64,000 nt of DNA from Butyrivibrio sp. (GCF_015056685.1 NZ_SVFW01000006.1:44522-108521), one strand, 5' to 3'. Shown: positions 4,892-63,937, numbered from the stretch's first letter. Notes: generated by a model from the letters alone, not told the origin. Program-made: numbers and translations.

Positions 4892-4955
4892 GAAGACAGA
4901 GGGACGGTTCTAATGACTTGTTTTTATAAGTCATTAGAACCGTCCCTCTGTCTTC
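4892..4955. repeat. REP-like long perfect hairpin (28-bp stem), member of a small dispersed repeat family
   Basis: GAAGACAGAGGGACGGTTCTAATGACTT gttttta TAAGTCATTAGAACCGTCCCTCTGTCTTC. The core GGGACGGTTCTAATGACTTA recurs at 62410-62449, 63687-63739 and 63742-63795. Confidence 0.8.
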
Positions 4956-5057
4956 TTGATGTAGCATTTTATAAAAATGTTAGATTTATAGTGTTAATTA
5001 ATATAGTGAAACGTACGATAAACAGATAAGTAATAGTCTTTTTATTAAGGGTGATTA

Positions 5058-17602: not shown

Positions 17603-17675
17603 TTATCCAATAAAAAGGGAGAGTATTATGGTTTTAAACATTTTGTTTTTGCCAGAATACTCTCTCTTTGTATGA

Positions 17676-17737
17676 GGGTAAGCACCTAGCGGTGTGGCTG
17701 GTCATTATGCCTCGGGCTCTGAATCCAGGAACAGTAG
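17676..17737 (-). ncRNA. Truncated left arm (5' third only) of the structured arm motif
   Basis: The reverse complement aligns with the first ~60 nt of the other arms (CTACTGTTCCTGGATTCAGAGCCCGAGGC..CCAGCCACACCGCTAGGTGCTTACCC). The remainder is deleted next to TTTGTAT. Confidence 0.5.
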
Positions 17738-17759
17738 GGGTGGCTACTTTTCTGACTAT

Positions 17760-17996
17760 GGGTAATTTTTTAATATTCCGACCTTTTACCCGTGTTTTGT
17801 TAGTACCCATGGGCAATATTTAATTTTCTCTGCCTTTTACCCGAGCTATCAGACATTCATTGGGTAAATCTATTATTTTTTTCATATTTGCCCAAGCTTG
17901 TCCAATAATTCTCGGGTAATAATCATCTCTTTTATTTCCTTACCCAAATCATACACTAACTCATGGGTAAAAACCTGCATTTTGTTCTTTTTGCCC
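17760..17996. repeat. Array of five hairpin units, GGG(T/C)AA-N20-22-TT(A/G)CCC, period 51-52 bp
   Basis: GGGYAA begins at 17760, 17811, 17862, 17914 and 17965. Partners are at 17786, 17837, 17888, 17940 and 17991. Confidence 0.8.
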
Positions 17997-18170
17997 GCAA
18001 TGCTCTTTAAAAATGGACAATACGAGACCATGATTTGAGACCAAAACACTTTTATTGGCACTTTCAATTGGTCCATATAAGATAAATCAGGCTGTTTATA
18101 ATAGAGTTATCTTATATACACAGTTGGCCGAAGACATTGCAACGCAGAGCCGCTTATGCCTCTATGTTAT

Positions 18171-18256
18171 GCACGCCGTCCAGGGAAAATCTATTCTAGC
18201 GTGCCTTGCATCCATATACCTTGCACGCAATCTGATAATAATTCACTTTAGCGTGC
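18171..18256. repeat. Two GCACGC-N22-GCGTGC hairpin units, period 52 bp
   Basis: GCACGC at 18171 and 18223; GCGTGC at 18199 and 18251. Confidence 0.7.
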
Positions 18257-18288
18257 ACGAAGCATCTGTTCAGGACAGTCATATCCTA

Positions 18289-18483
18289 CTACTGTTCTCG
18301 GATTCAGAGCCTGAGGCAGAAAAAACCAGCCACACCGCAGGTGCTTGCCCTTTACTGGTTCTGATGGAAACGCTACAATACCAGGTCCGACGGTGAGTGA
18401 AGAATTACTGTTCCCATCATCCTCACCGTCGGCAAGGTATAGACGGCGTTTCCATCAGGTTCAGTCAAGGGTGGCGCACGCAG
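18289..18483 (+). ncRNA. Right arm of copy 1: ~195-nt candidate structured RNA (unknown class)
   Basis: Starts CTACTGTTCTCGG and ends GGTGGCGCACGCAG. Nested helices carry perfect compensatory variants relative to the other copies (CTGATGGAAACGC / GCGTTTCCATCAG). Confidence 0.55.
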
Positions 18484-18584
18484 CCGATTCACTTACGCAC
18501 ATACAAAAGGAGAGTATTTTAGCAAGTATTAAACACTTATCCACATAAAAGGTAGATGGAGAGTATTCTAATATGCAGTAAATT

Positions 18585-18658: not shown

Positions 18659-20392
18659 TTATGAAGGCATTTCTTCCAATGTGAAGAATGCCATTTTTTC
18701 GTTGAGGGTTTCAGCCATGTCACGAAGATCATTTGCTGCACCACTTATGAGAGAAAATGTAGCATTGAGTTCTTCCATTGAAGCATTTGTTTCCTCTGTA
18801 GAAGCGGCATTTTGCTGAGATATAGCAGAAAGCTCTGTGATAATGTCTGAAAATCCTGCCTTAAGCTCATTAAGAAGATGAATTTTCTTGGATATTACCT
18901 TTGTAGAATTGTCTACATTGTTGACGTTTTCTACAACTGCATCCATATCATCTTTTGTAGTATTGAGCTGAGTATTCTGCTCCTGCATGCTCTTTCCGAG
19001 CTCTTCAATAATTTCAACGTTCTTCTGTGACTCTGCAACAAGATTTTCCACTATTTCCTTGATTGAAACGGCAGCGTCCTTTGACTGCTTTGAAAGGTTA
19101 CCAATTTCAGTAGCAACTACTGAGAAACCTTTTCCGTATTCGCCAGCTCTTGCTGCCTCAATTGAAGCGTTAAGAGAAAGAAGATGTGTCTGTTCAGCAA
19201 TTGCAGTAATCATGTTTGAAGCTTCTGCGATGCTCTTAACTGAATCATTAGTAGTGCGAATCTGTGTATGAATGTCTTTCATTGAAGTCATGACATCTTT
19301 ATTTTTACCCATAAGGTCATGAAGTGTATTTACAGTTCTCTGAGCACCTGACATCATTTCATTAGCAGAATTTGAAAGGTCTTCTATTTTTTCTGTAATT
19401 TCGTCAATACTGTCGCCCATCTGGTTAGTATTAGCTACAGAATTTTCCATGCTCTCAGCCTGAGAAGCAGCTCCACGGCTGATATCCTCTACAGCAGCTG
19501 TTATCTGTTCAGCTACATTAGAAGCAGATTCAGCAGAAGATGCAAGCTTTTCACCGGAAAGAGTTACATCATCTGAAAGCTTTTTAGTTGCGCTGATTAC
19601 ATCCTGAAGTTTGTCACGAACCATAGCGGAACTTTCTGCAATTACACCAAGCTCGTCCTTACGGTTGAATGTACGATCATTGATGTAGAAAGAAAGTTCA
19701 CCATCTTCAAGATTTTTAAGACCTGATACAATATCGCGGATTGATCTTGATGAAGTGCTTATAAGATAACGAGCTACACCAAAGTTGAACAGGAAAAAAC
19801 CAATGAATGTAAAAATAATAGAACGAAGCGCTGCGTCCATATTTGCTTTTACGATAGTAGTATCACGTCCTGCAAAAACCATACCAACAACAGAACCATC
19901 AGAGTTCTTAAGTGGAAGATAGTATGCGTACCAATCCTGACCTGCAATCTCAAAATTTGAAGCAAGATATTCATTTCCACTTGTGAGAACTTCGCTTACA
20001 ACTGTCTCTGAAGCTTTTGTTCCTTCCATTCGCTGACCTGTAGTTGCGTCTGTAAGAGATGTAACAAAACGTGTATCACCATAAAATAATGTATAGTGCA
20101 TACCGGTTTTCTCATGGAGTGCATCAAGCTGTGCCTGGTAAATGTCGTGAACTGCTACGTCACCTTTCATAAGCTGGCCATCCTCTGAAAGAGTCCAGTC
20201 ACCTTCAAACTGATTGGATACTTCATCATTTAAAAGAACTGCCGCTGCATGCAAACCCTCTGAAAAAGAAGTGAGATAAGCTTTCTGAATGTTTCTAAAG
20301 CCTATGATACCAACACATGCTGCCATAAGAAGGGCAAGAACTGATGCGATAACAATTATAGTGCGAACCATGTTTCTGTTTTTTGTTTTCAT
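18659..20392 (-). CDS. Methyl-accepting chemotaxis protein with Cache-like sensor domain
   Basis: N-terminal TM helix, an extracytoplasmic ~170-aa sensor, a second TM helix, HAMP, and a conserved MA signalling hairpin ([27 protein letters not shown]). Confidence 0.9.
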
Positions 20393-20494: not shown

Positions 20495-20575
20495 AGGTGC
20501 AACTGGCTGACATTTTAAAGTCCCTATAGCTTTGCGCCACAGGCTTTCGCCTGCTTTGCCAAATGTTAAATTTTA
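20495..20575 (-). promoter_or_regulatory. c-di-GMP-I (GEMM-I) riboswitch aptamer in the MCP leader
   Basis: The minus strand reads UUUGGCAAAGCAGGCGAAAGCCUGUGGCGCAAAGCUAUAGGGAC...CAGCCAGUUGCACC. It has the GGCAAA element, a P1 hairpin with a GAAA tetraloop, the (G/A)CGCAAAGC core and the AGCCAGUUGC 3' element of the GEMM-I consensus. Confidence 0.75.
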
Positions 20576-32346: not shown

Positions 32347-32379
32347 GGCCTACACAGATAGATTGTGTAGGTCTTTTTT
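32347..32379 (+). terminator. Terminator of the sugar transferase gene
   Basis: CCTACACA ... TGTGTAGG hairpin followed by TTTTTT. Confidence 0.7.
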
Positions 32380-32395
32380 ATTGTGATTTAAGAAA
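32374..32395 (+). repeat. Left copy of the 22-bp direct repeat bracketing element copy 2
   Basis: TTTTTTATTGTGATTTAAGAAA, identical to 33453-33474. Confidence 0.85.
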
Positions 32396-32430
32396 TGTAT
32401 TCCTGTGTATAAACGTAAGTATTGCGCTTA

Positions 32431-32625
32431 CGTACGCCACCATTGACTGAACCTGAGAATAACGCCGTCTATACCTCGCCGACGGTGAGGATGATGGGAA
32501 CAGTAGTTAGATTCATGCACCGTCGGATTCAGCATTATAGCGTTTTCCTCAGAACCCGTCAATGGCTAGCACCTGGCGGTGTGGCTGGGAATTATTGCCT
32601 CGGGATCCAATTCCGAGAACAGTAG
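32431..32625 (-). ncRNA. Left arm of copy 2 (structured arm motif, minus sense)
   Basis: The reverse complement aligns base-for-base with 33167-33361 and with the arms of the other copies. Confidence 0.55.
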
Positions 32626-32643
32626 GGGGTACTTTCTATCTAC

Positions 32644-33100
32644 GGGTAATTTTTTAATTTTCTGACCTTTTGCCCGTATTTTCATAGTATCCATGGGCAA
32701 TATTTAATTTTCTCTGCCTTTTACCCGAGTTATCAAACAATCATTGGGTAAATCTATCATTATTTTCATATTTACCCAAGCTTATTCAATAATTCTCGGG
32801 TAAAAATCATCTCTTTTATTTCTTTACCCTCGCGTCATGTCGAAAAAGATGTACAAGACATGAATAATAGAATAAATGCCAGATCTCATGCCAAACGATT
32901 CTATTCAAGGCATGAAATTATGAGAAAAATCTGACACAGCATGTCGAATTACAAAACAAAGACATGGTATCTGAGTCAAAATCACTAACAACATGTCTGA
33001 ACCACTATACAAAGCATGTAATACTTGCAAAAAATCCTCAAATCATGTCAGAAGCCTATGCACAAGGCATGAAAATCGAGAAAAATCTCTCGCAGCATGC
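32644..33100. repeat. Array of four GGGYAA/TTACCC units followed by five to six CATG(T/C)C/G(A/G)CATG units, period 51-53 bp
   Basis: Unit starts: 32644, 32695, 32746, 32798, 32836, 32887, 32940, 32992, 33044, 33095-33096. Confidence 0.8.
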
Positions 33101-33166
33101 TATAGCCAGGTAAATCTTTATGTTTTCAATATCCCAAGTCTCCAGCTGATTCAATTTCAGCCATCT

Positions 33167-33361
33167 CTACTGTTCTCGGAGTCAGAGCCAGAGGCAATTG
33201 TACCAGCCACACCGCAAGGTGCTTGCCATTGACGTGGTCTGAGGAAAACGCTACAATGCTGCATCCGACTGTGAGATAGAATCTACTGTTCCCATCATCA
33301 TCACCGTCGGCGAGGTATAGACGGCGCTTTCCGCAGGTTCAGTCAATGGTGGCGTACGCAG
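33167..33361 (+). ncRNA. Right arm of copy 2 (structured arm motif, plus sense)
   Basis: Runs from CTACTGTTCTCGGAG to CAGTCAATGGTGGCGTACGCAG. Confidence 0.55.
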
Positions 33362-33452
33362 CCGCAATCTAAAATTTTTAGAGAGTTAGAGAAGTCACTT
33401 ACGCATATACAAAATGTAAGTATCCTTCGAAAGCTTTGCATCACCTTTATAA

Positions 33453-33474
33453 TTTTTTATTGTGATTTAAGAAA
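33453..33474 (+). repeat. Right copy of the 22-bp direct repeat bracketing element copy 2
   Basis: TTTTTTATTGTGATTTAAGAAA. Confidence 0.85.
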
Positions 33475-33608: not shown

Positions 33609-34742
33609 ATGAAACTAAGTAGATTATTTGCGGTCGCTTTAAGCGGATTGCTGTTTATTCAGGCACCGGTTGTTGTGTTGGCAGAGGAATCTTATCAGGA
33701 TGGTAATTTGTATAAGTGTGATGATGAAAAAGAAGACTACTTATTTGTAGGGCATAATGGTTTTTTCTTATCTGAAGATGAACATCAAGATTATGAAAAA
33801 GTTTATGATACAGGAAGCGCTTTTAAAGAAGTCACAGATGATAGTGCCGATGGCAAAGAATATGGAGCAGGCTATGCCTTTGATTGTCAACAGAGTCCAA
33901 GTTCCGGCTATGTTGGTGGACTAACATCAAATTTGGTTGGGTTTGAGACGACCTTGTCAGAAGACCAAGTGGTAAAACTTCAATATATCGGTAATGAAAC
34001 TGATAAACCTTATAGATTGAGCCTGACAACTGCTTCATCCGAATCAGGAACAAGTGGTGGTGAAGAAGGACAATCATCAGGAGAATCAGGAGAACAGGGA
34101 ACGACTACAGAGCCAATTACAGAACCCACTTCGGAGTCAACTACAGAACCTACCACAGAACCTACTACGGAGCCAACTACAGAGCCAACTGTAGAGCCAG
34201 CACAGCCAGAAACTCCAGCAGAAGAAAATGTAGAGCCTACACCAGTTGTTGTAACTGAAAATACCAATAATAGTCAGCCTGCAGCACCAGCTGATGAACC
34301 ACAGCAGCCAGCAAATCAGGAACCTCAGGCGCCTGATACGACAGGTAGGATCAATATAATAAGCACAGCAGTAGGCAATGCACTTCCAACTACTGAACTT
34401 GGAAACGCAGAGGTTCCTACCAGAACATTGTCTCTTGATATATTTAGTATTACTCCTGCCCAAATGACAGCAGCAGTAAGCGATACAGTAAAAAGTGCGC
34501 CAGCAGATGGAAATGTAGTTATTGAAACAAATACTATCTCATGCCTTGATAATAATATGGTTCAGGCGTTTGCACAGAGACCGGACGTTGCTATCAGCAT
34601 AGTATTCAAAAATAAAGAAGGACAAAAACTAAAAGTAACAATTCCTGCCGGATATCCTGTTACAACTCTTCTTGATGAAAATGGTTACTGCGGATATATG
34701 CACCTTGTAGATATTTTTGGTGCTACTGTTCTGTCAGAGTAA
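33609..34742 (+). CDS. Secreted protein with (TEPT)n linker, unknown function
   Basis: Signal peptide MKLSRLFAVALSGLLFIQAPVVVLA, a TEPTTEPTTEPTTEPTVEP repeat, and AGAGAGG before ATG 33609. Confidence 0.65.
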   Translation: MKLSRLFAVALSGLLFIQAPVVVLAEESYQDGNLYKCDDEKEDYLFVGHNGFFLSEDEHQDYEKVYDTGSAFKEVTDDSADGKEYGAGYAFDCQQSPSSGYVGGLTSNLVGFETTLSEDQVVKLQYIGNETDKPYRLSLTTASSESGTSGGEEGQSSGESGEQGTTTEPITEPTSESTTEPTTEPTTEPTTEPTVEPAQPETPAEENVEPTPVVVTENTNNSQPAAPADEPQQPANQEPQAPDTTGRINIISTAVGNALPTTELGNAEVPTRTLSLDIFSITPAQMTAAVSDTVKSAPADGNVVIETNTISCLDNNMVQAFAQRPDVAISIVFKNKEGQKLKVTIPAGYPVTTLLDENGYCGYMHLVDIFGATVLSE

Positions 34743-34785
34743 GATTTAGAAATTGCTAAAATGGATTAGAATTGATGATTATTAC

Positions 34786-34818
34786 GAATGCTTACGCCAC
34801 CGGCGTAAGCATTCTTTT
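34786..34818 (+). terminator. Terminator of the 33609-34742 gene
   Basis: GAATGCTTACGCC accg GCGTAAGCATTC followed by TTTT. Confidence 0.75.
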
Positions 34819-34896
34819 ATTATCAATTCACAATTGTTAAGGGTATACAAAGCATTCGAGGGGGAGTGGTTTGGATAAACGTAAGTATTGCGCTCC

Positions 34897-35088
34897 TATA
34901 CGCCACCATTGACTGAACCTGAGGAAAACGCCGTCTATACCTCGCCGACGGTGAGAATGATGGGAACAGTAATTCTTCACTCACCGTCGGCCCCAGCATT
35001 GTAGCGTTTTCATCAGAACCAGTAAAGGGCAAGCACCTAGCGGTGTGGCTGTTTTTTCTGCCTCAGGCTCAAAATCCAGGAACAGTTG
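34897..35088 (-). ncRNA. Left arm of copy 3 (minus sense)
   Basis: The reverse complement aligns with the other arms. It looks chimeric: the 5' half resembles arm 1R and the 3' half resembles arm 2L. Confidence 0.5.
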
Positions 35089-35110
35089 AGGCGGACGCTT
35101 TTCTACCTAC

Positions 35111-35353
35111 GGGCAATTTTTTAATTTTCCGACCTTTTACCCGTGTTTTATTAGTGCCCATGGGTAATATTTAATTTTCTCTGACTTTTACCCGAGTTAT
35201 CAAACAATCATTGGGTAAATCTATCATTATTTTCATATTTACCCAAGCTTATTCAATAATTCTCGGGTAAAAATCATCTCTTTTAGTTCTTTACCCAAAT
35301 CATTCACTAAACTAACTCATGGGTAAAAACCTGCATTTTGTTCTTTAGTACCC
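35111..35353. repeat. Five GGGYAA-N20-22-TTACCC hairpin units, period 51-52 bp (last interval 56)
   Basis: Starts at 35111, 35162, 35213, 35265 and 35321. Confidence 0.8.
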
Positions 35354-35585
35354 GCAATGCTCTTTAAAAAAATGGGTCAAGTCCTATTTTATAAGCTAAA
35401 TCAGGCTGTTTATAATAGAGTTATCTTATATGCACAGCTGGCCGTAGACATTGCAATGCATAGTCGCTTATACCTCTTTGTTTTGCATGCTTGATCATAC
35501 ATCTATCTTTTAGGCAGTAAGGCAATGTATGTTAAATTGAAGAGATAAGCTCCTCATATCGAACTTGCAAATTATCATCTATCCT

Positions 35586-35783
35586 TTACTGTTCTCGGAT
35601 TCAGAGCCCGAGGCACTTAAAACCAGCCACACCGAAGGTGCTTGCCCTTGACGGGTTCTGAGGGAAACGCTACAATGCTGAATCCGATGGTGAAAGAATC
35701 TATCTACTGTTCCCATCATCCTCACCGTCGGCTCGCAGGCCAGGGCGTTTTCCCTCAGGTTCAGTCAGGGGTGGCGTACAGAG
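35586..35783 (+). ncRNA. Right arm of copy 3 (plus sense)
   Basis: Runs from TTACTGTTCTCGGATTCAGAGCCCGAGGC to CAGTCAGGGGTGGCGTACAGAG. It carries compensatory changes and G.U pairs. Confidence 0.55.
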
Positions 35784-35914
35784 CCAATTTACTTATGTTT
35801 TTCAATCTTCATAATCAACAAAATTCATCTATTATTCTTATCAAATTTACACTATAGACTAACGCAATATCGCATGAGTACAATTAATTCATCGATATTC
35901 TTGGGGAGGTCTAT

Positions 35915-36718
35915 ATGTTTTGTACATGTCACTATTTTAGCCACGTTTTAAATCACAATACGGAGATTAATGTTGTAATTCCGACTCCTGAAGGAAATGA
36001 GCAGATTACTGCTACAGGGAAAGATATGCGTTATGACTATGAGAATGGTCTTCCTGTAGTTTATTTGTTGCATGGAGCTTTTGGAGACAACAGCTCATGG
36101 TCAAGGTTTTCAAGCATAGAAAGATACGCTCAGGCACATAACTGCATTGCGGTAATGGCGGGCGTTGAAAATAGTTTTTATCAGGATATGGCACGGGGAG
36201 GCCAGTACTATACATATATGACAAAAGAACTGCCGGAGTACATTACACGCATATTCCCGGCATCAAAGAAAAGAGAAGATACGTATGTTGCAGGGCTTTC
36301 TATGGGAGGATACGGAGCCTGGTTTTTAGCACTTTCAAGACCCGATATTTATTCAAAGGCTGCATCAATGTCAGGAGCTCTTGATATCGTGCGACTTCAT
36401 GATGAAGCAATGGCCGGTAAAGTGGATAACCCATTCCCTTGGGAGGATGCTTTTGGTGAAGCGGCAGGCCACCTTGAAGGGAGCGACAGAGACCTGTTTG
36501 CATTATTAAAAAGAGATATGGAAAACGGACAGGTTCCAGAACTGTACCAGTCATGCGGCACAGAAGACTTTTTATATAAGCTCAATCAGGGAGTTCATGA
36601 GAAACTTGAAAAAATGGGAGTGAAGAGCATTTACAAAGAAGTTCCTGATCATATGCACAACTGGGATTTTTGGGATCTGGAGATCAGGAGCATCCTTGAC
36701 TGGATGTTTCCGGCATAA
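35915..36718 (+). CDS. Esterase family protein (alpha/beta hydrolase; putative acetyl/tributyrin esterase type)
   Basis: Nucleophile elbow GLSMGGYGA and an N-terminal pattern typical of the esterase D-like family. Confidence 0.7.
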   Translation: MFCTCHYFSHVLNHNTEINVVIPTPEGNEQITATGKDMRYDYENGLPVVYLLHGAFGDNSSWSRFSSIERYAQAHNCIAVMAGVENSFYQDMARGGQYYTYMTKELPEYITRIFPASKKREDTYVAGLSMGGYGAWFLALSRPDIYSKAASMSGALDIVRLHDEAMAGKVDNPFPWEDAFGEAAGHLEGSDRDLFALLKRDMENGQVPELYQSCGTEDFLYKLNQGVHEKLEKMGVKSIYKEVPDHMHNWDFWDLEIRSILDWMFPA

Positions 36719-36808: not shown

Positions 36809-39328
36809 ATGAAAATTTGTAAAAAGTTAAACAGCATAAAAAAGACTGATTACGGATATCTGGCTGAACTTGACAAAGCATACATGAAGATATGTTTTTT
36901 AACCGACAGCATTGTCAGAATTAAAGTATCTTTTGGAGATATTGCAGATGCTGATAAGCCTGAAGGATCATACGTGCTTCAGATGACTGGCTGGGATGAC
37001 AGACTTGATTTCCTTTTTGAAGACAGAAAGCATGTAACTCCACTTAAAGCTCTATTAGAGGAAAAAGAAAATGAGATATGTCTGAAGACTGATTCAGTAT
37101 GTCTTTTGCTGGAAAAGAACCCGCTTAGCATAAAGCTTGTGGATAAAGATGGCGATGTCATTTATGAAGGTGTAAAAGGAAGCCCATTTATAAAGGATGC
37201 TAATAACAGAGTAACCGGTTACACCAGAATGAATGAGGACGACTGCTTCTATGGTTTTGGTGAAAAGACTGGTCCAATAAACAAGAATAAGGACTTTATC
37301 AGAGAACGAGCCACCGATTGCTGGAGCTACGATCCTGAAAAGTGCGACACCATGTATAAGCACATTCCTTTTTATTTAAGGCTCGACAGGCAGGCAAGGA
37401 AGGCAACGGGACTTTTTTATAACAATTTCCATGAATCAGTATTTAATATGGGAAAAGAAAAGAGTAATTACTGGCCAAGATACACATACTTCCAGGCTGA
37501 CGGCGGCGATCTTGATCTTTTTGTATTCACCGGCCCATCCATAAAAAATGTGCTGGATGATTATACAGCTCTGACGGGAAGACCGGCTCTTTTACCTAAA
37601 AGAGCTCTTGGCTATCAGGGGTCATCAATGTACTATTCGGAGCTTGAAAAAGACTCTGACAAGGCGCTTATTGAATTTGTGGAGACTGTCAGAAGAAAGG
37701 GATTCCCAATTGACGGATTCCATCTGTCTTCCGGCTATACATCATACGACAATAAGAGGTGCGTATTTACCTGGAATAAAGAAAGGTTCCCTGATCCAAA
37801 GGGATATTTTGCAAAGATGAACGAGCTTGGGGCGCAGAACGTTCCTAATGTTAAGCCGGGAATTCTTTTGATGCATCCAAAGTTTGATGAGTTCAAAAAG
37901 GAAGGCGTTTTTGTAAGAGACAGTGAAAATGATAAAGAACCGGCTGTAGGTTCCTGGTGGGGAGGCCCCGGGGCATTTTGGGATTACACAAGCCCTAAGG
38001 GAAGAGAACTGTGGAAAAAATATCTTACAGAGACTGTTATTGATATTGGAACCAATTCTATTTGGGATGATAACTGCGAATATGACAGTCTTTTGGACCA
38101 CGACAGCAAGTGCGACTACGACGGCGAGGGCGGCAGGATCGGCGAGTTCAAGCCTGTTATGTGCACCATCATGAGTAAGCTTGCCTGTGAAGCGGTAAAA
38201 GAGCATGACAAGAGCAAAAGACCTTATGTTGTTTGCCGAAGTGGTAGCAGCGGAATTCAGAAATACGCTCAGAACTGGGTTGGTGATAACTGCACAGCGT
38301 GGAGAACTTTAAAACACAATATACCGACCATGCTTGGAGTGGGACTATCAGGCCAACCTAATACAGGCTGTGATATTGGCGGTTTTGCGGGACCGGCACC
38401 TGAAGAAGAGCTCTTTGTCAGATGGGTGCAGCATGGCATATTCCAGCCAAGATTTTCAATTCATTCGGCAAGTAGTGACAACACTGTAACAGAACCGTGG
38501 ATGTATTCAAGACAGACTGACAGGATAAGAAATGCAATCCTGCTTAGATATCGCATGCTTCCTCATTTCTATTCACTGGAGTATGAAGCTCATGTGACCG
38601 GTGCTCCGATAATGAGGCCTCTTGTCTATGAGTTCCAAAATGATGAGAACGTCTATGAAGAAAACTTTGAGTTTATGCTTGGAAAAGACCTGCTTGTGGC
38701 AAATGTTCTTGAAAAGGGACAGATAGTAAAAGATATTTATCTTCCTGAAGGCTGTAAATGGTTTGATCTTGAGAACAACTTTAAATGCTACGAAGGTGGA
38801 CAGGTGATATCTATTCCTGTAAATATCAACTCTATCCCGAGATTCTTGAGGGAGGGTGCAATACTGCCAACGGCTCTCAATCAGCCTATGAATGCGGAAA
38901 AAGACCCGGTGACGGATTTAAGCCTCACATTTGTTCCGTATACAGATGGAAAAGAGCATGTATCAGAGTATATATATTACGATGATGACGGCTGCAGCAA
39001 TGATTTCGAGGACGGAGTATACAGAAAGACCACTATTACCATGAGTGGCAGCGGTGTAATAGATATCTCATTTAAGGGCGAGGGCACTTATAAAGATACT
39101 GTGGAAACAGTGGTGGCGACAGTTGTGTATAAAGAGAAAGCGCCTTTGTGGATATCCTTTGAAGACAAGAAGCTAACTCACATTTTGGACAGGGAAAAGT
39201 TTGAAGCATCCGATAACTGCTGGTATTATAGCGAGACCTTGAGAGCAGCACTCATTAAGTTTAGGAATCCAAAGCACGATGCCAGCCTCAAAGTGTCATT
39301 TGAAGAGTTTGATCTTATTGGGATGTGA
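36809..39328 (+). CDS. Glycoside hydrolase family 31 (alpha-glucosidase/alpha-xylosidase type)
   Basis: 839 aa with a GH31 catalytic region (KPGILLMHP, IWDDNCEY, TGCDIGGFAG). Confidence 0.85.
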   Translation: MKICKKLNSIKKTDYGYLAELDKAYMKICFLTDSIVRIKVSFGDIADADKPEGSYVLQMTGWDDRLDFLFEDRKHVTPLKALLEEKENEICLKTDSVCLLLEKNPLSIKLVDKDGDVIYEGVKGSPFIKDANNRVTGYTRMNEDDCFYGFGEKTGPINKNKDFIRERATDCWSYDPEKCDTMYKHIPFYLRLDRQARKATGLFYNNFHESVFNMGKEKSNYWPRYTYFQADGGDLDLFVFTGPSIKNVLDDYTALTGRPALLPKRALGYQGSSMYYSELEKDSDKALIEFVETVRRKGFPIDGFHLSSGYTSYDNKRCVFTWNKERFPDPKGYFAKMNELGAQNVPNVKPGILLMHPKFDEFKKEGVFVRDSENDKEPAVGSWWGGPGAFWDYTSPKGRELWKKYLTETVIDIGTNSIWDDNCEYDSLLDHDSKCDYDGEGGRIGEFKPVMCTIMSKLACEAVKEHDKSKRPYVVCRSGSSGIQKYAQNWVGDNCTAWRTLKHNIPTMLGVGLSGQPNTGCDIGGFAGPAPEEELFVRWVQHGIFQPRFSIHSASSDNTVTEPWMYSRQTDRIRNAILLRYRMLPHFYSLEYEAHVTGAPIMRPLVYEFQNDENVYEENFEFMLGKDLLVANVLEKGQIVKDIYLPEGCKWFDLENNFKCYEGGQVISIPVNINSIPRFLREGAILPTALNQPMNAEKDPVTDLSLTFVPYTDGKEHVSEYIYYDDDGCSNDFEDGVYRKTTITMSGSGVIDISFKGEGTYKDTVETVVATVVYKEKAPLWISFEDKKLTHILDREKFEASDNCWYYSETLRAALIKFRNPKHDASLKVSFEEFDLIGM

Positions 39329-39347
39329 GCGATATAAGGATTCAAGT

Positions 39348-39383
39348 AGATACAAAGCTGTGCTTGCACAAAGCTTTGTATCT
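39348..39383 (+). terminator. Hairpin terminator after the GH31 gene
   Basis: AGATACAAAGCT ... AAGCTTTGTATCT followed by ATTTG (a weak T-run). Confidence 0.5.
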
Positions 39384-39629
39384 ATTTGAAGACTGAACGG
39401 ACATGAGGAAGTAGCACGATAGTGCGGATTCCGAATGAGCGTAGGATTGCGAGAACGAAGTGTAGCAATCCGTATATCGCGAAACAAATAATTTGTTGTG
39501 CAACGTGCATATAATTTTTAAGGAATATCAATATTTTGTGTCCAATATTTACAGAGGTACAAAATAACGATATAATAAATTATGGTATTTTTATACAAAA
39601 GCCTGCAATTAAACTTAGGAGGGAAAGAA

Positions 39630-60156: not shown

Positions 60157-62307
60157 ATGAAAAGAAAACAGATTTTGGCAGCTCTTTTGACAGGATGCTT
60201 GTTACTTGCCGGGTGCGGAACTGCAGCTGATAGTGCGGTAACTGAAACTCCTGCCGAGGGGGCAAGTAAGGAAGAGGTGGCAGCAGATGCATCAACAGAC
60301 ACTGCTAGTGCTGAGTCTTCCGAAGAAACAGCTCAGGCTGAAAGCGAATCTTATGTTGTTGATGGAGGAAGTCCCTGGATAAACTCCAACATCAAAGAAA
60401 ATGTTGTTAACAGTGATAAGGCTTCTGCAAAAGATGATCTGAATCTTGCGGTTAACTATGACTGGGCAATCACAGCAGAAATACCGGATGGATACAGTTC
60501 TTATGACAGCTTTACTGAAGTATCTCAGATAATTGATGATAAGGCACTTGAAACCTTGAAGGATGAGACAATTACCGGGCATGATGCTGAACTTGCAAGA
60601 GCATATTATAATGCTTTTCTTGATTGGGATGACCGAAATGCAAAAGGGCTTTCACCGTTGGAGCCATTTGTTAAAGATATTGAATCTCTTTCAAGCATAG
60701 AAGATGTAACAGAATTCATACTGGATAATGACAGATCAAACTTTACCCCTACTTTGGTTGGAATTGGAAACGTGGGTGATTTGACAGATTCATCAAGGTA
60801 TGTGACAAATGTGGATCATTCAAGCCTTCTACTGGGAGATTCTGCGGAGTATAAAGAGTTTAGCACAGTTGGAAAGTTAAAGTATGATGCCTACAGGAGC
60901 CTGTTTTCCAATATGATGACAAGGCTGGGATATACTAATGATGAGGCTGATAAGTATTACGATGCATGCTTTTCTTTTGAGTCAGCTCTTTCTGAGAAAG
61001 TATATACTTCGCTGGAAAACAGCGATCCTGCAATCTATGACAAGATACTTAACTATTATGAGCCAGAGGAAATGGCAGCTTTGGCTCCTAATTTCCCAAT
61101 GGATGAATTTATAAAGGAAAATGGCTACGACAATGCAAAGGTATTTCTTGTAACAGAGCCGGATGCTTTGGCAAAGATTTCAGATCTTTATACATCGGAC
61201 AACCTTGAGAACATCAAGGGATATTTCATGGTTCAGACGGTTTTGGGATGTACAACTGACCTTGACAGAGAGGCATTCGATGCAAGACTTGAGGCACAGC
61301 GTTCTATATATGGTGCATCAGGTACTCTTTCTGATGAAAAATATGCATATGCATATGTAAATGCAGCATTGCCTGAAGCTATGGAAAAGGCATATATGGC
61401 AAAGTATGATGTCACTGAGACAAAAAAAGAAGTGACGCAGTTATGCAAAGATGTAGCGGATGTTTATAGGGAAATGCTCGAAAACGAGGACTGGCTTTCT
61501 GACGAGACAAGAGAATATGCAATGGAAAAACTTGACTCATTGGAAATCAATGTGGTTGAGCCAAAAGAATACGTGGATTACAGTGGCCTTGATTTAAATG
61601 GTCTTACTTATTTTGAAATACAGAAAGCACTTGCTGATTTTAGTTGGGAGCTTGATAAAGAACGAACAAACGGAACTGTAAATAAGAATCTCTGGGAAGG
61701 TATGTCAACACTTGAAACTAATGCTTACTATGACCCAACGGCCAATTCTATTAACATTCTTCTTGGAATACTTGATGGAGTTTTTTATGGCGATGATAAG
61801 TCAAAAGAGGAGATATATGCAGGAATCGGAGCTGTTATCGGACATGAGATAAGTCATGCTTTTGATACAAACGGAGCTCAGTTTGACAAGGATGGTAATT
61901 ACAGCAATTGGTGGACTGATGAAGATTACAGTGCCTTCCAGGAAAGAGCGCAGAAACTTATAAACTACTACGATGGAATAACAGTATTTGGCGATGAAAA
62001 AGTTACCGGTTCTCTGGTACAGACTGAAGCAATTGCAGACATGGCAGGCCTTAAAGCAATGCTTACACTGGCATCCAAGGAAGAAAGCTTTGACTATAAA
62101 AAGTTCTTTGAGAGCTATGCTAATGTGTGGAAGAATATTTCTACTTATGAAGCTATTTATTCACAACTCACTCAGGATGCGCATCCATTAGATTATTTAA
62201 GAGTAAATGTAACTTCCCAGCAGTTTGATGAATTCTATGAAGCGTTCGACGTAAAAGAAGGCGATGGAATGTATCTTGCTCCGGAAGACAGAATCCTGAT
62301 CTGGTAA
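60157..62307 (+). CDS. pepO: M13 family metalloendopeptidase lipoprotein (PepO-like)
   Basis: Start MKRKQILAALLTGCLLLAGCG (lipobox) is preceded by AAGGAG. Zinc motif VIGHEISHAFD and the downstream E of the M13 family. Confidence 0.85.
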   Translation: MKRKQILAALLTGCLLLAGCGTAADSAVTETPAEGASKEEVAADASTDTASAESSEETAQAESESYVVDGGSPWINSNIKENVVNSDKASAKDDLNLAVNYDWAITAEIPDGYSSYDSFTEVSQIIDDKALETLKDETITGHDAELARAYYNAFLDWDDRNAKGLSPLEPFVKDIESLSSIEDVTEFILDNDRSNFTPTLVGIGNVGDLTDSSRYVTNVDHSSLLLGDSAEYKEFSTVGKLKYDAYRSLFSNMMTRLGYTNDEADKYYDACFSFESALSEKVYTSLENSDPAIYDKILNYYEPEEMAALAPNFPMDEFIKENGYDNAKVFLVTEPDALAKISDLYTSDNLENIKGYFMVQTVLGCTTDLDREAFDARLEAQRSIYGASGTLSDEKYAYAYVNAALPEAMEKAYMAKYDVTETKKEVTQLCKDVADVYREMLENEDWLSDETREYAMEKLDSLEINVVEPKEYVDYSGLDLNGLTYFEIQKALADFSWELDKERTNGTVNKNLWEGMSTLETNAYYDPTANSINILLGILDGVFYGDDKSKEEIYAGIGAVIGHEISHAFDTNGAQFDKDGNYSNWWTDEDYSAFQERAQKLINYYDGITVFGDEKVTGSLVQTEAIADMAGLKAMLTLASKEESFDYKKFFESYANVWKNISTYEAIYSQLTQDAHPLDYLRVNVTSQQFDEFYEAFDVKEGDGMYLAPEDRILIW

Positions 62308-62341
62308 TGGATCAATAAGAAATATATGTTGTAGATTAACG

Positions 62342-62383
62342 AGAGGATTACTGCAAACCTGTTTGGTTACGCAGTAATCCTCT
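62342..62383 (+). terminator. Terminal hairpin of copy 4, doubling as the pepO terminator (faces inward)
   Basis: AGAGGATTACTGC ... GCAGTAATCCTCT followed by TAATTTGTAT. Confidence 0.6.
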
Positions 62384-62409
62384 TAATTTGTATATGCGTA
62401 AGTGAGTTA

Positions 62410-62449
62410 GAAGACACTGGGACGGTTCTAATGACTTATGAAGACACTG
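62410..62449. repeat. REP-like unit (partial) nested in the left arm extension of copy 4
   Basis: GAAGACACTGGGACGGTTCTAATGACTTATGAAGACACTG shares its core with 4892-4955. Confidence 0.7.
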
Positions 62450-62487
62450 ATATGTATAAGCTTAAGGAATTGGTAAATGCTTAGTTC

Positions 62488-62679
62488 CGTACGCCACCAT
62501 TGACTGAGCCTGAGGAAAACGCCTTGGCCATAGAGCCGACGGTGAGGATGATGGGAACAGTAGATTATCACGCACCGTCGGATTCAGCATTGTAGCGTTT
62601 TCCTCAGAACCCGTCAATGGCAAGCACCTACGGTGTGGCTGGGTGTTATTGCCTCAGGCTCCAAATCCGAGAACAGTAG
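62488..62679 (-). ncRNA. Left arm of copy 4 (minus sense)
   Basis: The reverse complement aligns with 63460-63655, and all long-range helices are perfect. Confidence 0.55.
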
Positions 62680-62680
62680 T

Positions 62681-63321
62681 GGTGGCTACTTTCAAGGATA
62701 TGTGTGACTATATGTCTGCGTCTTTCAATGTATAGAGAGCGAAGATTATGTTTTGGAAACATAGCCCGTTTTTTGAACTTACAACACCAGTCGTCAAGTT
62801 TTTTGACTTGCGTTTTTGGGCATATACGGCCTTTTTTGAAGTTACCACACCATTATATAGATGATCATATGTTTCAGTTTACTCATCCAATGGATGTGGC
62901 AATCCACTTTTTTCTCGTATATGCCCATTTTCGCTTCCTGAAAATTTTGTCGATGGATGTGTTAACTTAAAAGTATGACTATATACCCAGTTCCTCATGT
63001 TCAATTCATTCCATACGTCGTGAAGAATAATGGTTTGGGCATATAGCGCTTTGGAGAGCTTCCAGCCACCTTTGATTCTTACTATTTTGGGCATATAGCA
63101 GCTTTTTGCGAGGCCAGCCACCCCTCAAATGGGCATATAGGCTGATTTCAAGCCTCTGGCCACCCGTTAAAATGGTGGCTGTGGACGGATAATTACCGTA
63201 TATGCCCAATCGTCTGCGATAAAACTATGACGAGGGGTGGCTGCAAGCCTAAAATCAGGCTATATACCCAAAATCGGTTTTTTTACGGGTGGCTGAGGTA
63301 TTGAAAACGAGCTATATGCCC
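62681..63321. repeat. Array of about ten bipartite modules: box A (T)GGGCATATAG and box B CCAGCCACC, in both orientations
   Basis: Forward box A at 62818, 63037, 63089 and 63131. Reverse box A (TATAT(G/A)(C/T)C(C)) at 62709, 62918, 62980, 63199, 63261 and 63313. Same-orientation spacings are 42, 52, 52, 62 and 62 bp. Confidence 0.75.
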
Positions 63322-63459
63322 AAAGACAATGCTTTCGGCTCTCTAAACTACTACTACCTATAGAGTGGACACATACAAACTTCCTTTAGCCCCACTTTCG
63401 TATGCAACATGCTGCATGCGAAAACTGGCGCGCCAGCGTTTTCTTAAAAGCAGCCGCAT

Positions 63460-63655
63460 CTACTGTTCTCGGAATTGGAGTCAGAGGCATTTTAAACCAG
63501 CCACACCGCTAGGTGCTTGCCATTGACGGGTTCTGAGGAAAACGCTACAATTCTGAATCCGACGGTGCTAGAAAATCTACTGTTCCCATCATCATCACCG
63601 TCGGCAGAGCTGGCAAGGCGTTTTCCTCAGACTCAGTCAATGGTGGCGTACGCAG
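63460..63655 (+). ncRNA. Right arm of copy 4 (plus sense), reference copy for the structural model
   Basis: Helices: CCATTGAC 63520-27 with GTCAATGG 63636-43; CTGAGGAAAACGC 63533-45 with GCGTTTTCCTCAG 63618-30; CCGACGGTG 63559-67 with CACCGTCGG 63596-604. Confidence 0.55.
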
Positions 63656-63686
63656 TTACAACCTATACTTTTCTAAGAAGTTAAAT

Positions 63687-63795
63687 GGACGGTTGAGAGA
63701 ATTGCTTTTAATAAGTCATTAGAACCGTCCCGGTGTCTTGTGGACGGTTGAGTGACTTGCTTTTAATAAGTCATTAGAACCGTCCCGGTGTCTTC
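63687..63795. repeat. Two tandem REP-like units nested in the right arm extension of copy 4
   Basis: GGACGGTTGAG(A/T)GA(A/C)TTGCTTTTAATAAGTCATTAGAACCGTCCCGGTGTCTT occurs twice (63687-63739 and 63742-63795). Confidence 0.75.
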
Positions 63796-63825
63796 TTTCA
63801 ACATACTTACGCTTATACAAATAAA

Positions 63826-63867
63826 GAGGAATACTGCGTAACCAAACAGGTTGGCAGTATTCCTCTC
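63826..63867 (-). terminator. Terminal hairpin of copy 4 facing inward from the right-hand gene
   Basis: AGAGGAATACTGC ... GGCAGTATTCCTCT. On the minus strand it is followed by TTTATTTGTAT. Confidence 0.5.
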
Positions 63868-63937
63868 GTTAATCTCTTATGCGTAAAAAACTTAATAAGG
63901 GTTGAAATTTAATTTATCACTTGCGATAGAAAAATTT

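Follow-up and report, generated by a model that had tools for sequence, protein, structure and literature searches.

A promoter-bearing fold in the arms of a palindromic Butyrivibrio repeat, and its possible action in single-stranded DNA

Arm 4R is a module of about 198 nt at the right-hand end of a non-coding palindromic repeat, element E4, in a 64,000-nt stretch of DNA from Butyrivibrio sp. (GCF_015056685.1 NZ_SVFW01000006.1:44522-108521), referred to here as the window. The fold of the arm is under selection on the strand that reads outward from the element centre, and a near-consensus sigma-70 promoter is predicted in register with its helices. A first-pass annotation, made from the sequence alone, had described positions 63460-63655, whose sequence we confirmed by reading the window directly, as an ornate structured RNA. 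Its helices and internal loop coincide with the -35 box, the 17-nt spacer and the -10 box of the putative promoter, which went unnoticed at the time, and this coincidence changes the likely mechanism. We tentatively propose that the arm fold acts in single-stranded DNA as a promoter or priming signal, possibly in the manner of the single-strand origins (sso) of plasmids.

The arm fold is under selection on its outward strand

RNAalifold returned one nested fold for the seven full arms of the window, with 50 pairs at -64 kcal/mol, comprising a 5' hairpin, a CACC/GGTG hairpin, a long-range helix, a 13-bp helix and a 9-bp hairpin that carries a conserved loop. A covariance model built on these seven arms was then applied to the window and to loci from five other Butyrivibrio assemblies, yielding 116 distinct full-length arms at 185-229 bits, with pairwise identities of 72-97% (median 85%). 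The parts of arm 4R, all on the plus strand, are as follows.

63459-63656: arm 4R, the whole module of about 198 nt studied here (covariance model match of 229 bits, model positions 1-198)
63468-63486: 5' hairpin CTCGG..CAGAG (helix 1), five pairs, with a G.A mismatch in 4R; 93% of cells paired over the 116 arms
63504-63515: small hairpin CACC-GCTA-GGTG (RNAalifold fold and 116-arm alignment)
63519-63527: 5' strand of the long-range helix, GCCATTGAC, holding most of the -35 box; partner 63636-63644
63523-63528: -35-like hexamer TTGACG (promoter scan)
63533-63545: 5' strand of the 13-bp helix, CTGAGGAAAACGC, equal to the promoter spacer; partner 63618-63630
63546-63551: -10-like hexamer TACAAT; T63546 pairs with G63617 as the closing pair of the helix, and A-11 to T-7 are unpaired
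63547-63558: internal loop, 5' side (promoter positions -11 to +1), always 12 nt long over the 116 arms and largely conserved in sequence, with 28 alleles
63559-63604: terminal hairpin (helix 5, 98.7% paired), CCGACGGTG (63559-63567) with CACCGTCGG (63596-63604), closing a 28-nt loop
63605-63616: internal loop, 3' side, likewise always 12 nt long; hypervariable in sequence, with 50 alleles, the first base an invariant C
63617-63644: 3' strands of both long helices, GCGTTTTCCTCAG (63618-63630) in the 13-bp helix and GTCAATGGT (63636-63644) in the long-range helix

That all seven full arms share one fold, with its long-range and 13-bp helices, had been proposed in the first-pass annotation and is borne out both by this fold and by the 116-arm alignment. 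Two details needed amendment: the 5' hairpin is present, although 4R reads CAGAG where CCGAG had been given, and the terminal hairpin, with its conserved loop, has 9 bp in the consensus rather than 9-11 bp. A further GGCA..TGCC stem uses bases that overlap the 5' hairpin and the long-range helix; its columns are invariant, and it is therefore neither supported nor refuted. Within the terminal loop, whose consensus ends in ..AATCTACTGTTCCCATCATCCT, only the 3' half is invariant, CTACTGTTCCCATCATC (63577-63593), a motif with seven occurrences in the window where chance predicts 0.2. The loop of the small hairpin is G-N-A in 91 of the 116 arms and G-N-N-A in 24, with GNRA-type loops (GCAA, GTAA) in 16.

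Standard pairs fill 97.2% of the pair cells, and variation sits mainly in the loops, as had been seen among the window copies. Five of the 50 pairs, with 31 cells, have changed on both sides, a level reached by none of 500 shuffles, and the covariation score is 0.068, compared with 0.017-0.038 after the partners had been slid. Parsimony on a neighbour-joining tree gives paired columns an average of 2.9 events and unpaired columns 10.1, so that stems change 3.5 times less often, and nine direct double changes lead from one Watson-Crick pair to another; the sequences recombine, and such counts depend on the tree. The long-range helix carries an A-U to C-G double change at alignment columns 66/195 and the 13-bp helix compensatory events at columns 83/180, 84/179 and 85/177. 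The compensatory differences suspected from a few copies are thus upheld in a larger set of homologues. The covariance-model alignment is fitted to the structure, an effect that is small because the stems are nearly free of indels.

As to the strand, single changes at Watson-Crick pairs gave G.U 82 times and A.C 23 times in the outward sense (binomial p 6e-9), while the rates of C>T and G>A differ little in unpaired columns (4.7 and 5.4 per site). Since the unpaired columns show no such asymmetry, the excess of G.U over A.C reflects selection and not mutation bias. The sense strand folds better than the antisense in 88 of the 116 arms, alifold assigns consensus energies of -36.7 to the sense alignment and -14.7 to its antisense counterpart, and six G.U pairs are part of the consensus fold. 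The argument from wobble pairs for an outward sense, first drawn from a few T.G pairs, is therefore upheld in the larger set as well. These are the pairing properties of a generic structured non-coding RNA gene, and folded RNA and folded single-stranded DNA would show them alike. A cruciform in duplex DNA was considered and rejected by reasoning, given the distance of about 70 nt between the helix arms and a wobble asymmetry that is specific to one strand.

A promoter in register with the fold

A promoter scan of the outward strand found TTGACG-17-TACAAT in arms 2R, 3R, 4L and 4R (63523-63551 in 4R), the same arrangement with TATAAT in 2L, and a weaker TTTACT-17-TACAAT in 3L. Among the 116 arms, the -35 hexamer is TTGACG in 100 and the -10 hexamer TAnAAT in 114; A-11, A-9, A-8 and T-7 are invariant, position -10 (C, A or T) being the sole variable base of the -10 core. 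The spacer measures 17 nt in 106 arms and 16-18 nt in all. The -35 box lies inside the long-range helix, the spacer is the 13-bp helix, and T-12 makes the last pair of that helix (T.G). The stretch from A-11 to +1 makes up the internal loop's 5' side, and the 9-bp terminal hairpin begins at +2. The loop measures 12x12 nt in every arm, and its two sides are non-complementary (1.55 matches of 12), the promoter side being conserved and the opposite side hypervariable. Folding each arm singly, with RNA or DNA parameters, puts 96-98% of the -35 and spacer positions into pairs and leaves about 80% of those from -11 to -7 unpaired. So modelled, the folded strand is laid out like an open promoter complex, with an upstream duplex, a bubble exposing the non-template -10 and a downstream duplex.

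This layout suggests how the arm might work. When the outward-sense strand becomes single-stranded, the -35 box and 17-nt spacer would turn duplex through the long-range and 13-bp helices, while the -10 box, TAnAAT, would stay unpaired from A-11 on in the fixed 12x12-nt bubble and the 9-bp terminal hairpin would stand in for the downstream duplex. Host RNA polymerase holoenzyme could then bind this mimic of an open complex and start RNA opposite the invariant C (63605), the template +1 at the head of the 3' loop strand. The RNA, beginning G-CCGACGGUG, would be a copy of the 3' strand of the hairpin and of the invariant loop half, continuing back into the element, and would act as primer or transcript for complementary-strand synthesis. 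Because the arms are inverted, each strand of an element would have one such signal near its 3' side. Candidate sources of the single-stranded DNA are mobilisation, rolling-circle copying and the lagging-strand template. Two properties of the loops fit this model: the only invariant part of the terminal loop is its 3' half, which the polymerase would copy first, and the small hairpin is mostly capped by G-N-A triloops, which are unusually stable in DNA mini-hairpins.

Known systems of two kinds resemble the arm in these respects. Single-strand origins of rolling-circle plasmids and of ICEBs1, about 160-340 nt long, fold only when single-stranded, function in one orientation and have their primer made by RNA polymerase (PMC5703833; PMC4595007). 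The arm is like ssoA, ssoU, ssoT, ssoW and the ICEBs1 sso1 in its size, its lack of coding sequence and its strand-specific fold, and it has the extensive one-strand secondary structure that marks an sso in general. A polymerase-recognition motif likewise lies in a stem, and the polymerase would head towards the loop, with the invariant loop part beside the start. Frpo stem-loops rebuild canonical -35 and -10 boxes for RNA polymerase (PMC9849209; PMC11541004). A stem-loop of this description, as set out for Frpo and ssi elements in PMC11541004, is present in the arm, which in this feature also resembles the filamentous-phage minus-strand origin, where single-stranded DNA rebuilds the two boxes.

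Several observations weigh against the single-strand proposal. A single-stranded stage of these chromosomal elements beyond normal replication is so far unseen. Plasmid, phage and viral-contig collections, the home of known sso and Frpo elements, gave no match to the arm when searched. Unlike sso, the arms are chromosomal, high in copy number and arranged as inverted pairs around repeat arrays, and no Rep, relaxase or transposase was found to recur beside the elements. The ssoA type is characterised by CS-6 (TAGCGT/A) in its terminal loop and by RSB-region homology; the terminal loop of the arm has no TAGCGT, Blast gave no similarity to any plasmid, and the arm is unlike known single-strand origins in sequence. 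Frpo elements occupy plasmid leading regions upstream of ssb, psiB and similar genes, whose early expression they drive, whereas the arms are chromosomal and intergenic, have no gene to drive inward, the element centre being gene-free, and have no plasmid match. Unlike Frpo, moreover, the arm hexamers also appear to form an ordinary duplex promoter facing outward. The G.U pairs and compensatory changes suit RNA equally well, and in only about 40 of the 116 arms does the single-sequence fold leave the whole stretch from -11 to -7 unpaired. Nor is any chromosomal family with many copies of such a signal known to us.

Copies, element architecture and genomic setting

By repeat finding and alignment, the window contains seven full arms and a truncated one, that is, four head-to-head pairs, in which every left arm is on the minus strand and every right arm on the plus. 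Besides arm 4R, the elements, the arms placed by the covariance model and the remaining parts of E4 are these.

about 17642-18484: element E1
17642-17738, minus: arm 1L, truncated, with the inner ~65 nt left
18288-18484, plus: arm 1R
32427-33362: element E2
32427-32626, minus: arm 2L, with the full consensus TATAAT as its -10 box
33166-33362, plus: arm 2R
34893-35784: element E3
34893-35089, minus: arm 3L
35585-35784, plus: arm 3R
62484-63656: element E4
62484-62680, minus: arm 4L, inverted partner of 4R (228 bits), with TTGACG-17-TACAAT at 62617-62589
62681-63458, no strand assigned: centre of E4, non-coding short-module arrays, with TGGGCATATAG-N~20-CAGCCACC three times and then three times inverted
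62330-62403, plus: left outer module of E4, TGTAGATTA, a ~42-nt hairpin and TTAATTTGTATATGCGTAAGT, an inverted repeat; the module occurs family-wide
63804-63875, plus: right outer module of E4, ACTTACGCTTATACAAA, a hairpin and CGTTAATCT

As its conserved end module, the arm belongs to a palindromic repeat that is modular, non-coding and high in copy number. In each element two arms stand head to head, with tandem arrays of short modules between them and hairpin modules outside. The central arrays consist of 60-90-nt units in tandem, with a short inverted motif pair proper to each array type (GGGTAA, TGGGCATATAG plus CAGCCACC, TAGGTCATG, AGGATAA, GGGATAA, GGGTATATA, CGGATAA or GACATG), and the types of the left and right halves are independent. 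Outside the arms lie optional small palindromes, ACTTACGCATATACAAA, and then a hairpin of about 50 nt ending in CCTAATCTACA. When read inward, this outer hairpin is followed by a T-rich tract and is terminator-like for incoming transcription; the left outer module of E4 reads as a terminator for transcription entering the element, and the terminator scan missed it because its loop exceeds 8 nt. A general inward terminator array made of central hairpin-plus-T-run units was rejected, since this holds for some module types only. A CRISPR array was also set aside: the central units repeat whole, 'spacers' included, and there are no cas genes among the neighbours.

In its variable loops the arm draws on a few alleles, which combine freely and independently of the adjacent module type. 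A guide-like role, as in bridge RNA, was rejected, as arm loops and the motif of the adjacent central module showed no correlation. Truncated arms and solo arms exist. Where enough flank was available (95 arms), the neighbouring gene presents its 3' end to the arm in 73 cases (77%) and a 5' end in 22. No protein family recurs in the 716 kb around the copies, and an apparent 'family' inside the elements proved to be spurious open reading frames (ORFs) over repeat DNA. Insertion sequences (IS) of the IS3 and IS256 types are inserted in some copies. An IS256-type transposase gene (Transposase_mut; L097 84-1322, a metagenome contig) is joined at the position of window 32696, in the E2 centre, and an IS3-type pair (HTH plus rve; L072 2828-4341) lies inside an element of the metagenome-assembled genome (MAG) RGIG9232. 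Both were rejected as the element's own enzyme, being secondary insertions.

A wider scan with an exact pattern, in which each species was represented by one genome, gave more than 94 stretches, and the matches listed are nearly all from Butyrivibrio, namely B. proteoclasticus P18, sp. Su6, sp. AE2015 and the MAGs RGIG9232 and RGIG1500. Spread beyond the genus was rejected: two pattern matches read directly, in Eubacterium and Lachnospiraceae MAGs, turned out to be unrelated sequence, and in those from Dorea, Roseburia and Bacteroidota the covariance model found no arm. Among the matches listed, the repeat thus appears confined to the genus Butyrivibrio. The B316 genome paper does not mention these repeats, and a literature search gave no earlier description. 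In the AE2015, P18 and Su6 drafts most arm matches lie 100-900 nt from a contig end, the breaks falling in element centres; the elements are what breaks Butyrivibrio draft assemblies.

Elements E1, E2 and E4 occur at orthologous sites in other species, where aligned flanks outside the repeats are 86-90% identical. Orthologous arms are not mutual closest relatives, which, together with the free combination of alleles, indicates exchange between copies. For E3 no clean empty site was found, the orthologous Su6 and P18 regions carrying other genes. Elements mark the borders of variable gene content. The gene content between E2 and an esterase gene varies by species (window 33609-35915; L032 519-5240; L014 4328-6870): the window interval contains E3 and a gene for a 377-aa protein that matches nothing in Pfam, Su6 has ORFs of 361 and 1349 aa and no E3, and P18 has ORFs of 260 and 396 aa. 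No consistent target-site duplication was found at definable ends, the ends of the elements being modular and hard to define. E2 is flanked by a 22-bp direct repeat, TTTTTTATTGTGATTTAAGAAA, at 32372-32393 and 33448-33469 (about 28 bp with mismatches); it begins in the T-run of the upstream gene's terminator, and the orthologous Su6 element (L032) has no duplication.

Other repeats accompany the elements. A second small palindrome, GGACGGTTCTAATGACTT..AAGTCATTAGAACCGTCC, present at many loci, stands alone at 4892-4959 (68 nt) and is inserted in the outer part of E4 in two tandem copies (62419-62440; 63677-63799). At the site orthologous to the palindrome at window 4892, AE2015 has an arm-bearing element (L041). 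The terminator hairpin GAATGCTTACGCCACCGGCGTAAGCATTC (34786-34814) is a repeated module near arms (L085, L044, L028, L024, L054, L072) and contains GCCACC, a motif found three times per arm. A unit of about 46 nt, CCTTGAAAGTAGCCACC plus the 5' hairpin, occurs in degenerate tandem copies upstream of some arms (L064 5357-5440, L076, L080; window 62681-62700), and the bipartite CATATAG-N20-AGCCACC just 5' of each arm resembles the GGGCATATA/CAGCCACC unit of the central arrays. Elsewhere in the window, a Clostridiales-1 RNA (RF01699, 108 bits, full length) lies at 39330-39479 on the plus strand, directly after a GH31 glycosidase gene (36809-39328), and a c-di-GMP-I riboswitch aptamer (54.5 bits) at 20495-20570 on the minus strand, just upstream of a Cache/MCP chemotaxis receptor gene (18659-20392, minus strand).

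In architecture the elements recall known intergenic repeats. BOX and REP/BIME sequences are high-copy, non-coding, modular and intergenic, with hairpin end modules and variable internal units in alternating orientation, and lie mostly behind genes. The Butyrivibrio elements share with these, and with REPINs, the modularity, the alternating units, the location behind genes and the conserved structure. Yet the arm, with 195 nt and five helices, is far larger than a REP (20-40 nt; REP/BIME are summarised in PMC3333891) or a box module and has no homology to them, and unlike BOX and REP it embeds a consensus promoter in register with its fold. GTAG/CTAC motifs are present, as in REPINs, whereas the unit measures 195 nt and a limited search saw no RAYT. 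The elements have the terminal inverted repeats and lack of coding capacity of miniature inverted-repeat transposable elements (MITEs), and no autonomous, transposase-encoding relative was found in the 716 kb around the copies. Correia elements of Neisseria are inverted-repeat non-coding MITEs of 100-155 bp that give promoters and hairpins to their neighbours and have 26-bp terminal repeats and a TA target duplication. In contrast, the elements here measure 0.9-2 kb, their structured arms are 195 nt long, and no target duplication could be detected. The repeat thus resembles BOX, REP/BIME and Correia repeats in architecture and, in the action proposed for its arm, sso and Frpo, and is a member of none of these families.

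Alternative explanations and significance

The first-pass annotation took each arm for a structured RNA. On this reading the arm encodes a non-coding RNA of about 200 nt transcribed outward from the element centre, to which the helices, the conserved loop CUACUGUUCCCAUCAUC and the conserved internal loop all belong, while the hexamers are of secondary importance or present by coincidence. The nested fold under purifying selection, the compensatory events, the bias towards G.U on the outward strand and the six consensus G.U pairs all suit such a gene, as do the 16 arms with GNRA-type loops and an upstream module with the promoter TTTACA-16-TATAGT, located 26 nt before 16 arms. Yet only 18 of 108 arms have an upstream promoter scoring at least 10 of 12 within 200 nt, mostly that of the TTTACA-16-TATAGT module, the modules upstream of the arms are heterogeneous, and the outer flanks hold no outward terminator past the arm. 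Rfam 15 gave no match to the arms at gathering thresholds, and at E-value <=10 the region 62300-63900 gave noise of <=20 bits. Furthermore, an RNA gene must ascribe to chance TTGACG-17-TAnAAT, its promoter-like conservation and its exact register with helix and loop; its small hairpin would be mostly triloop-capped, and its copies are numerous, mosaic, in part truncated or interrupted by IS elements and, among the matches listed, found in one genus only. The fold itself is real and conserved by selection, whereas its identity as RNA is, in our estimate, unlikely. We hold it about equally improbable that the elements are ordinary mobile or recombining intergenic repeats of the MITE, BIME or BOX kind, with a normal duplex promoter reading outward and the overlap of promoter and helices a historical accident; the hairpins would then serve, for example, in folded-strand recognition by a trans-acting transposase or as RNA hairpins that stabilise or insulate neighbouring transcripts. 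Much of the genomic setting agrees with this: the high copy number, with contigs breaking inside elements; the mosaics of shared pieces in arms, centres and outer modules; the truncated and solo copies; the preference for gene 3' ends; the outer hairpins with T-rich tracts on their inward side; the exchange implied by orthologous arms that are not closest relatives; the AE2015 element where the window has only the 68-nt palindrome; and the well-conserved promoter. Against it, target-site duplication is limited to the one 22-bp direct repeat at E2, neither an autonomous copy nor a recurrent transposase was found, and antisense RNA would be made wherever a strong outward promoter points at convergent genes from their 3' side. 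It also leaves unexplained the fixed 12x12 loop, the invariant C and a -10 box that starts at the helix end. RNA from a plain duplex promoter would begin near 63558 and lack the 5' strands of both long helices, and so cannot account for the selected pairing.

Neutral repeats without function, whether young or kept symmetric as palindromes by gene conversion, with covariation as a by-product, would agree with variable segments that are few, freely recombining alleles and with double changes at only five of the 50 pairs. That the copies might simply be young had been raised in the first-pass annotation and does not survive, as arms differ by up to 28% and occupy orthologous sites across species whose flanking genes are 86-90% identical. 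The slower change of stems than of loops also argues against neutrality, and the 82:23 ratio of G.U to A.C is matched by no mutational asymmetry, nor would symmetric conversion produce it. This explanation is already largely refuted, and we regard it as very improbable. The single-strand model, by contrast with the RNA gene and the plain promoter, each of which misses one set of observations, would explain both the pairing and the promoter. Its broader form, in which Butyrivibrio chromosomes hold dozens to hundreds of folded single-stranded-DNA promoters whose inverted pairs let each strand recruit RNA polymerase and prime its complement, is more doubtful than the action of the arm itself.

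Butyrivibrio is an important degrader of fibre in the rumen, and these elements break its draft genomes and border its variable gene content. They also offer a clean natural case in which selection on a fold, with strand-specific tolerance of wobble pairs, is demonstrable from paralogous copies alone. If the single-strand model is true, polymerase-recruiting DNA hairpins, so far a matter of plasmids and phages, would extend to chromosomal repeats, and the arms would be the first chromosomal, high-copy family of the sso or Frpo kind. The model would then imply an unseen single-stranded stage in copying or mobilising the elements, or a part in lagging-strand priming, and would give a testable route by which non-coding repeats without a transposase multiply. 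If the folded molecule is instead RNA, the arms would constitute an undescribed family of structured RNAs of about 200 nt with more than 100 copies. Either way, the embedded promoters and terminator-like hairpins should affect the expression of many neighbouring genes.

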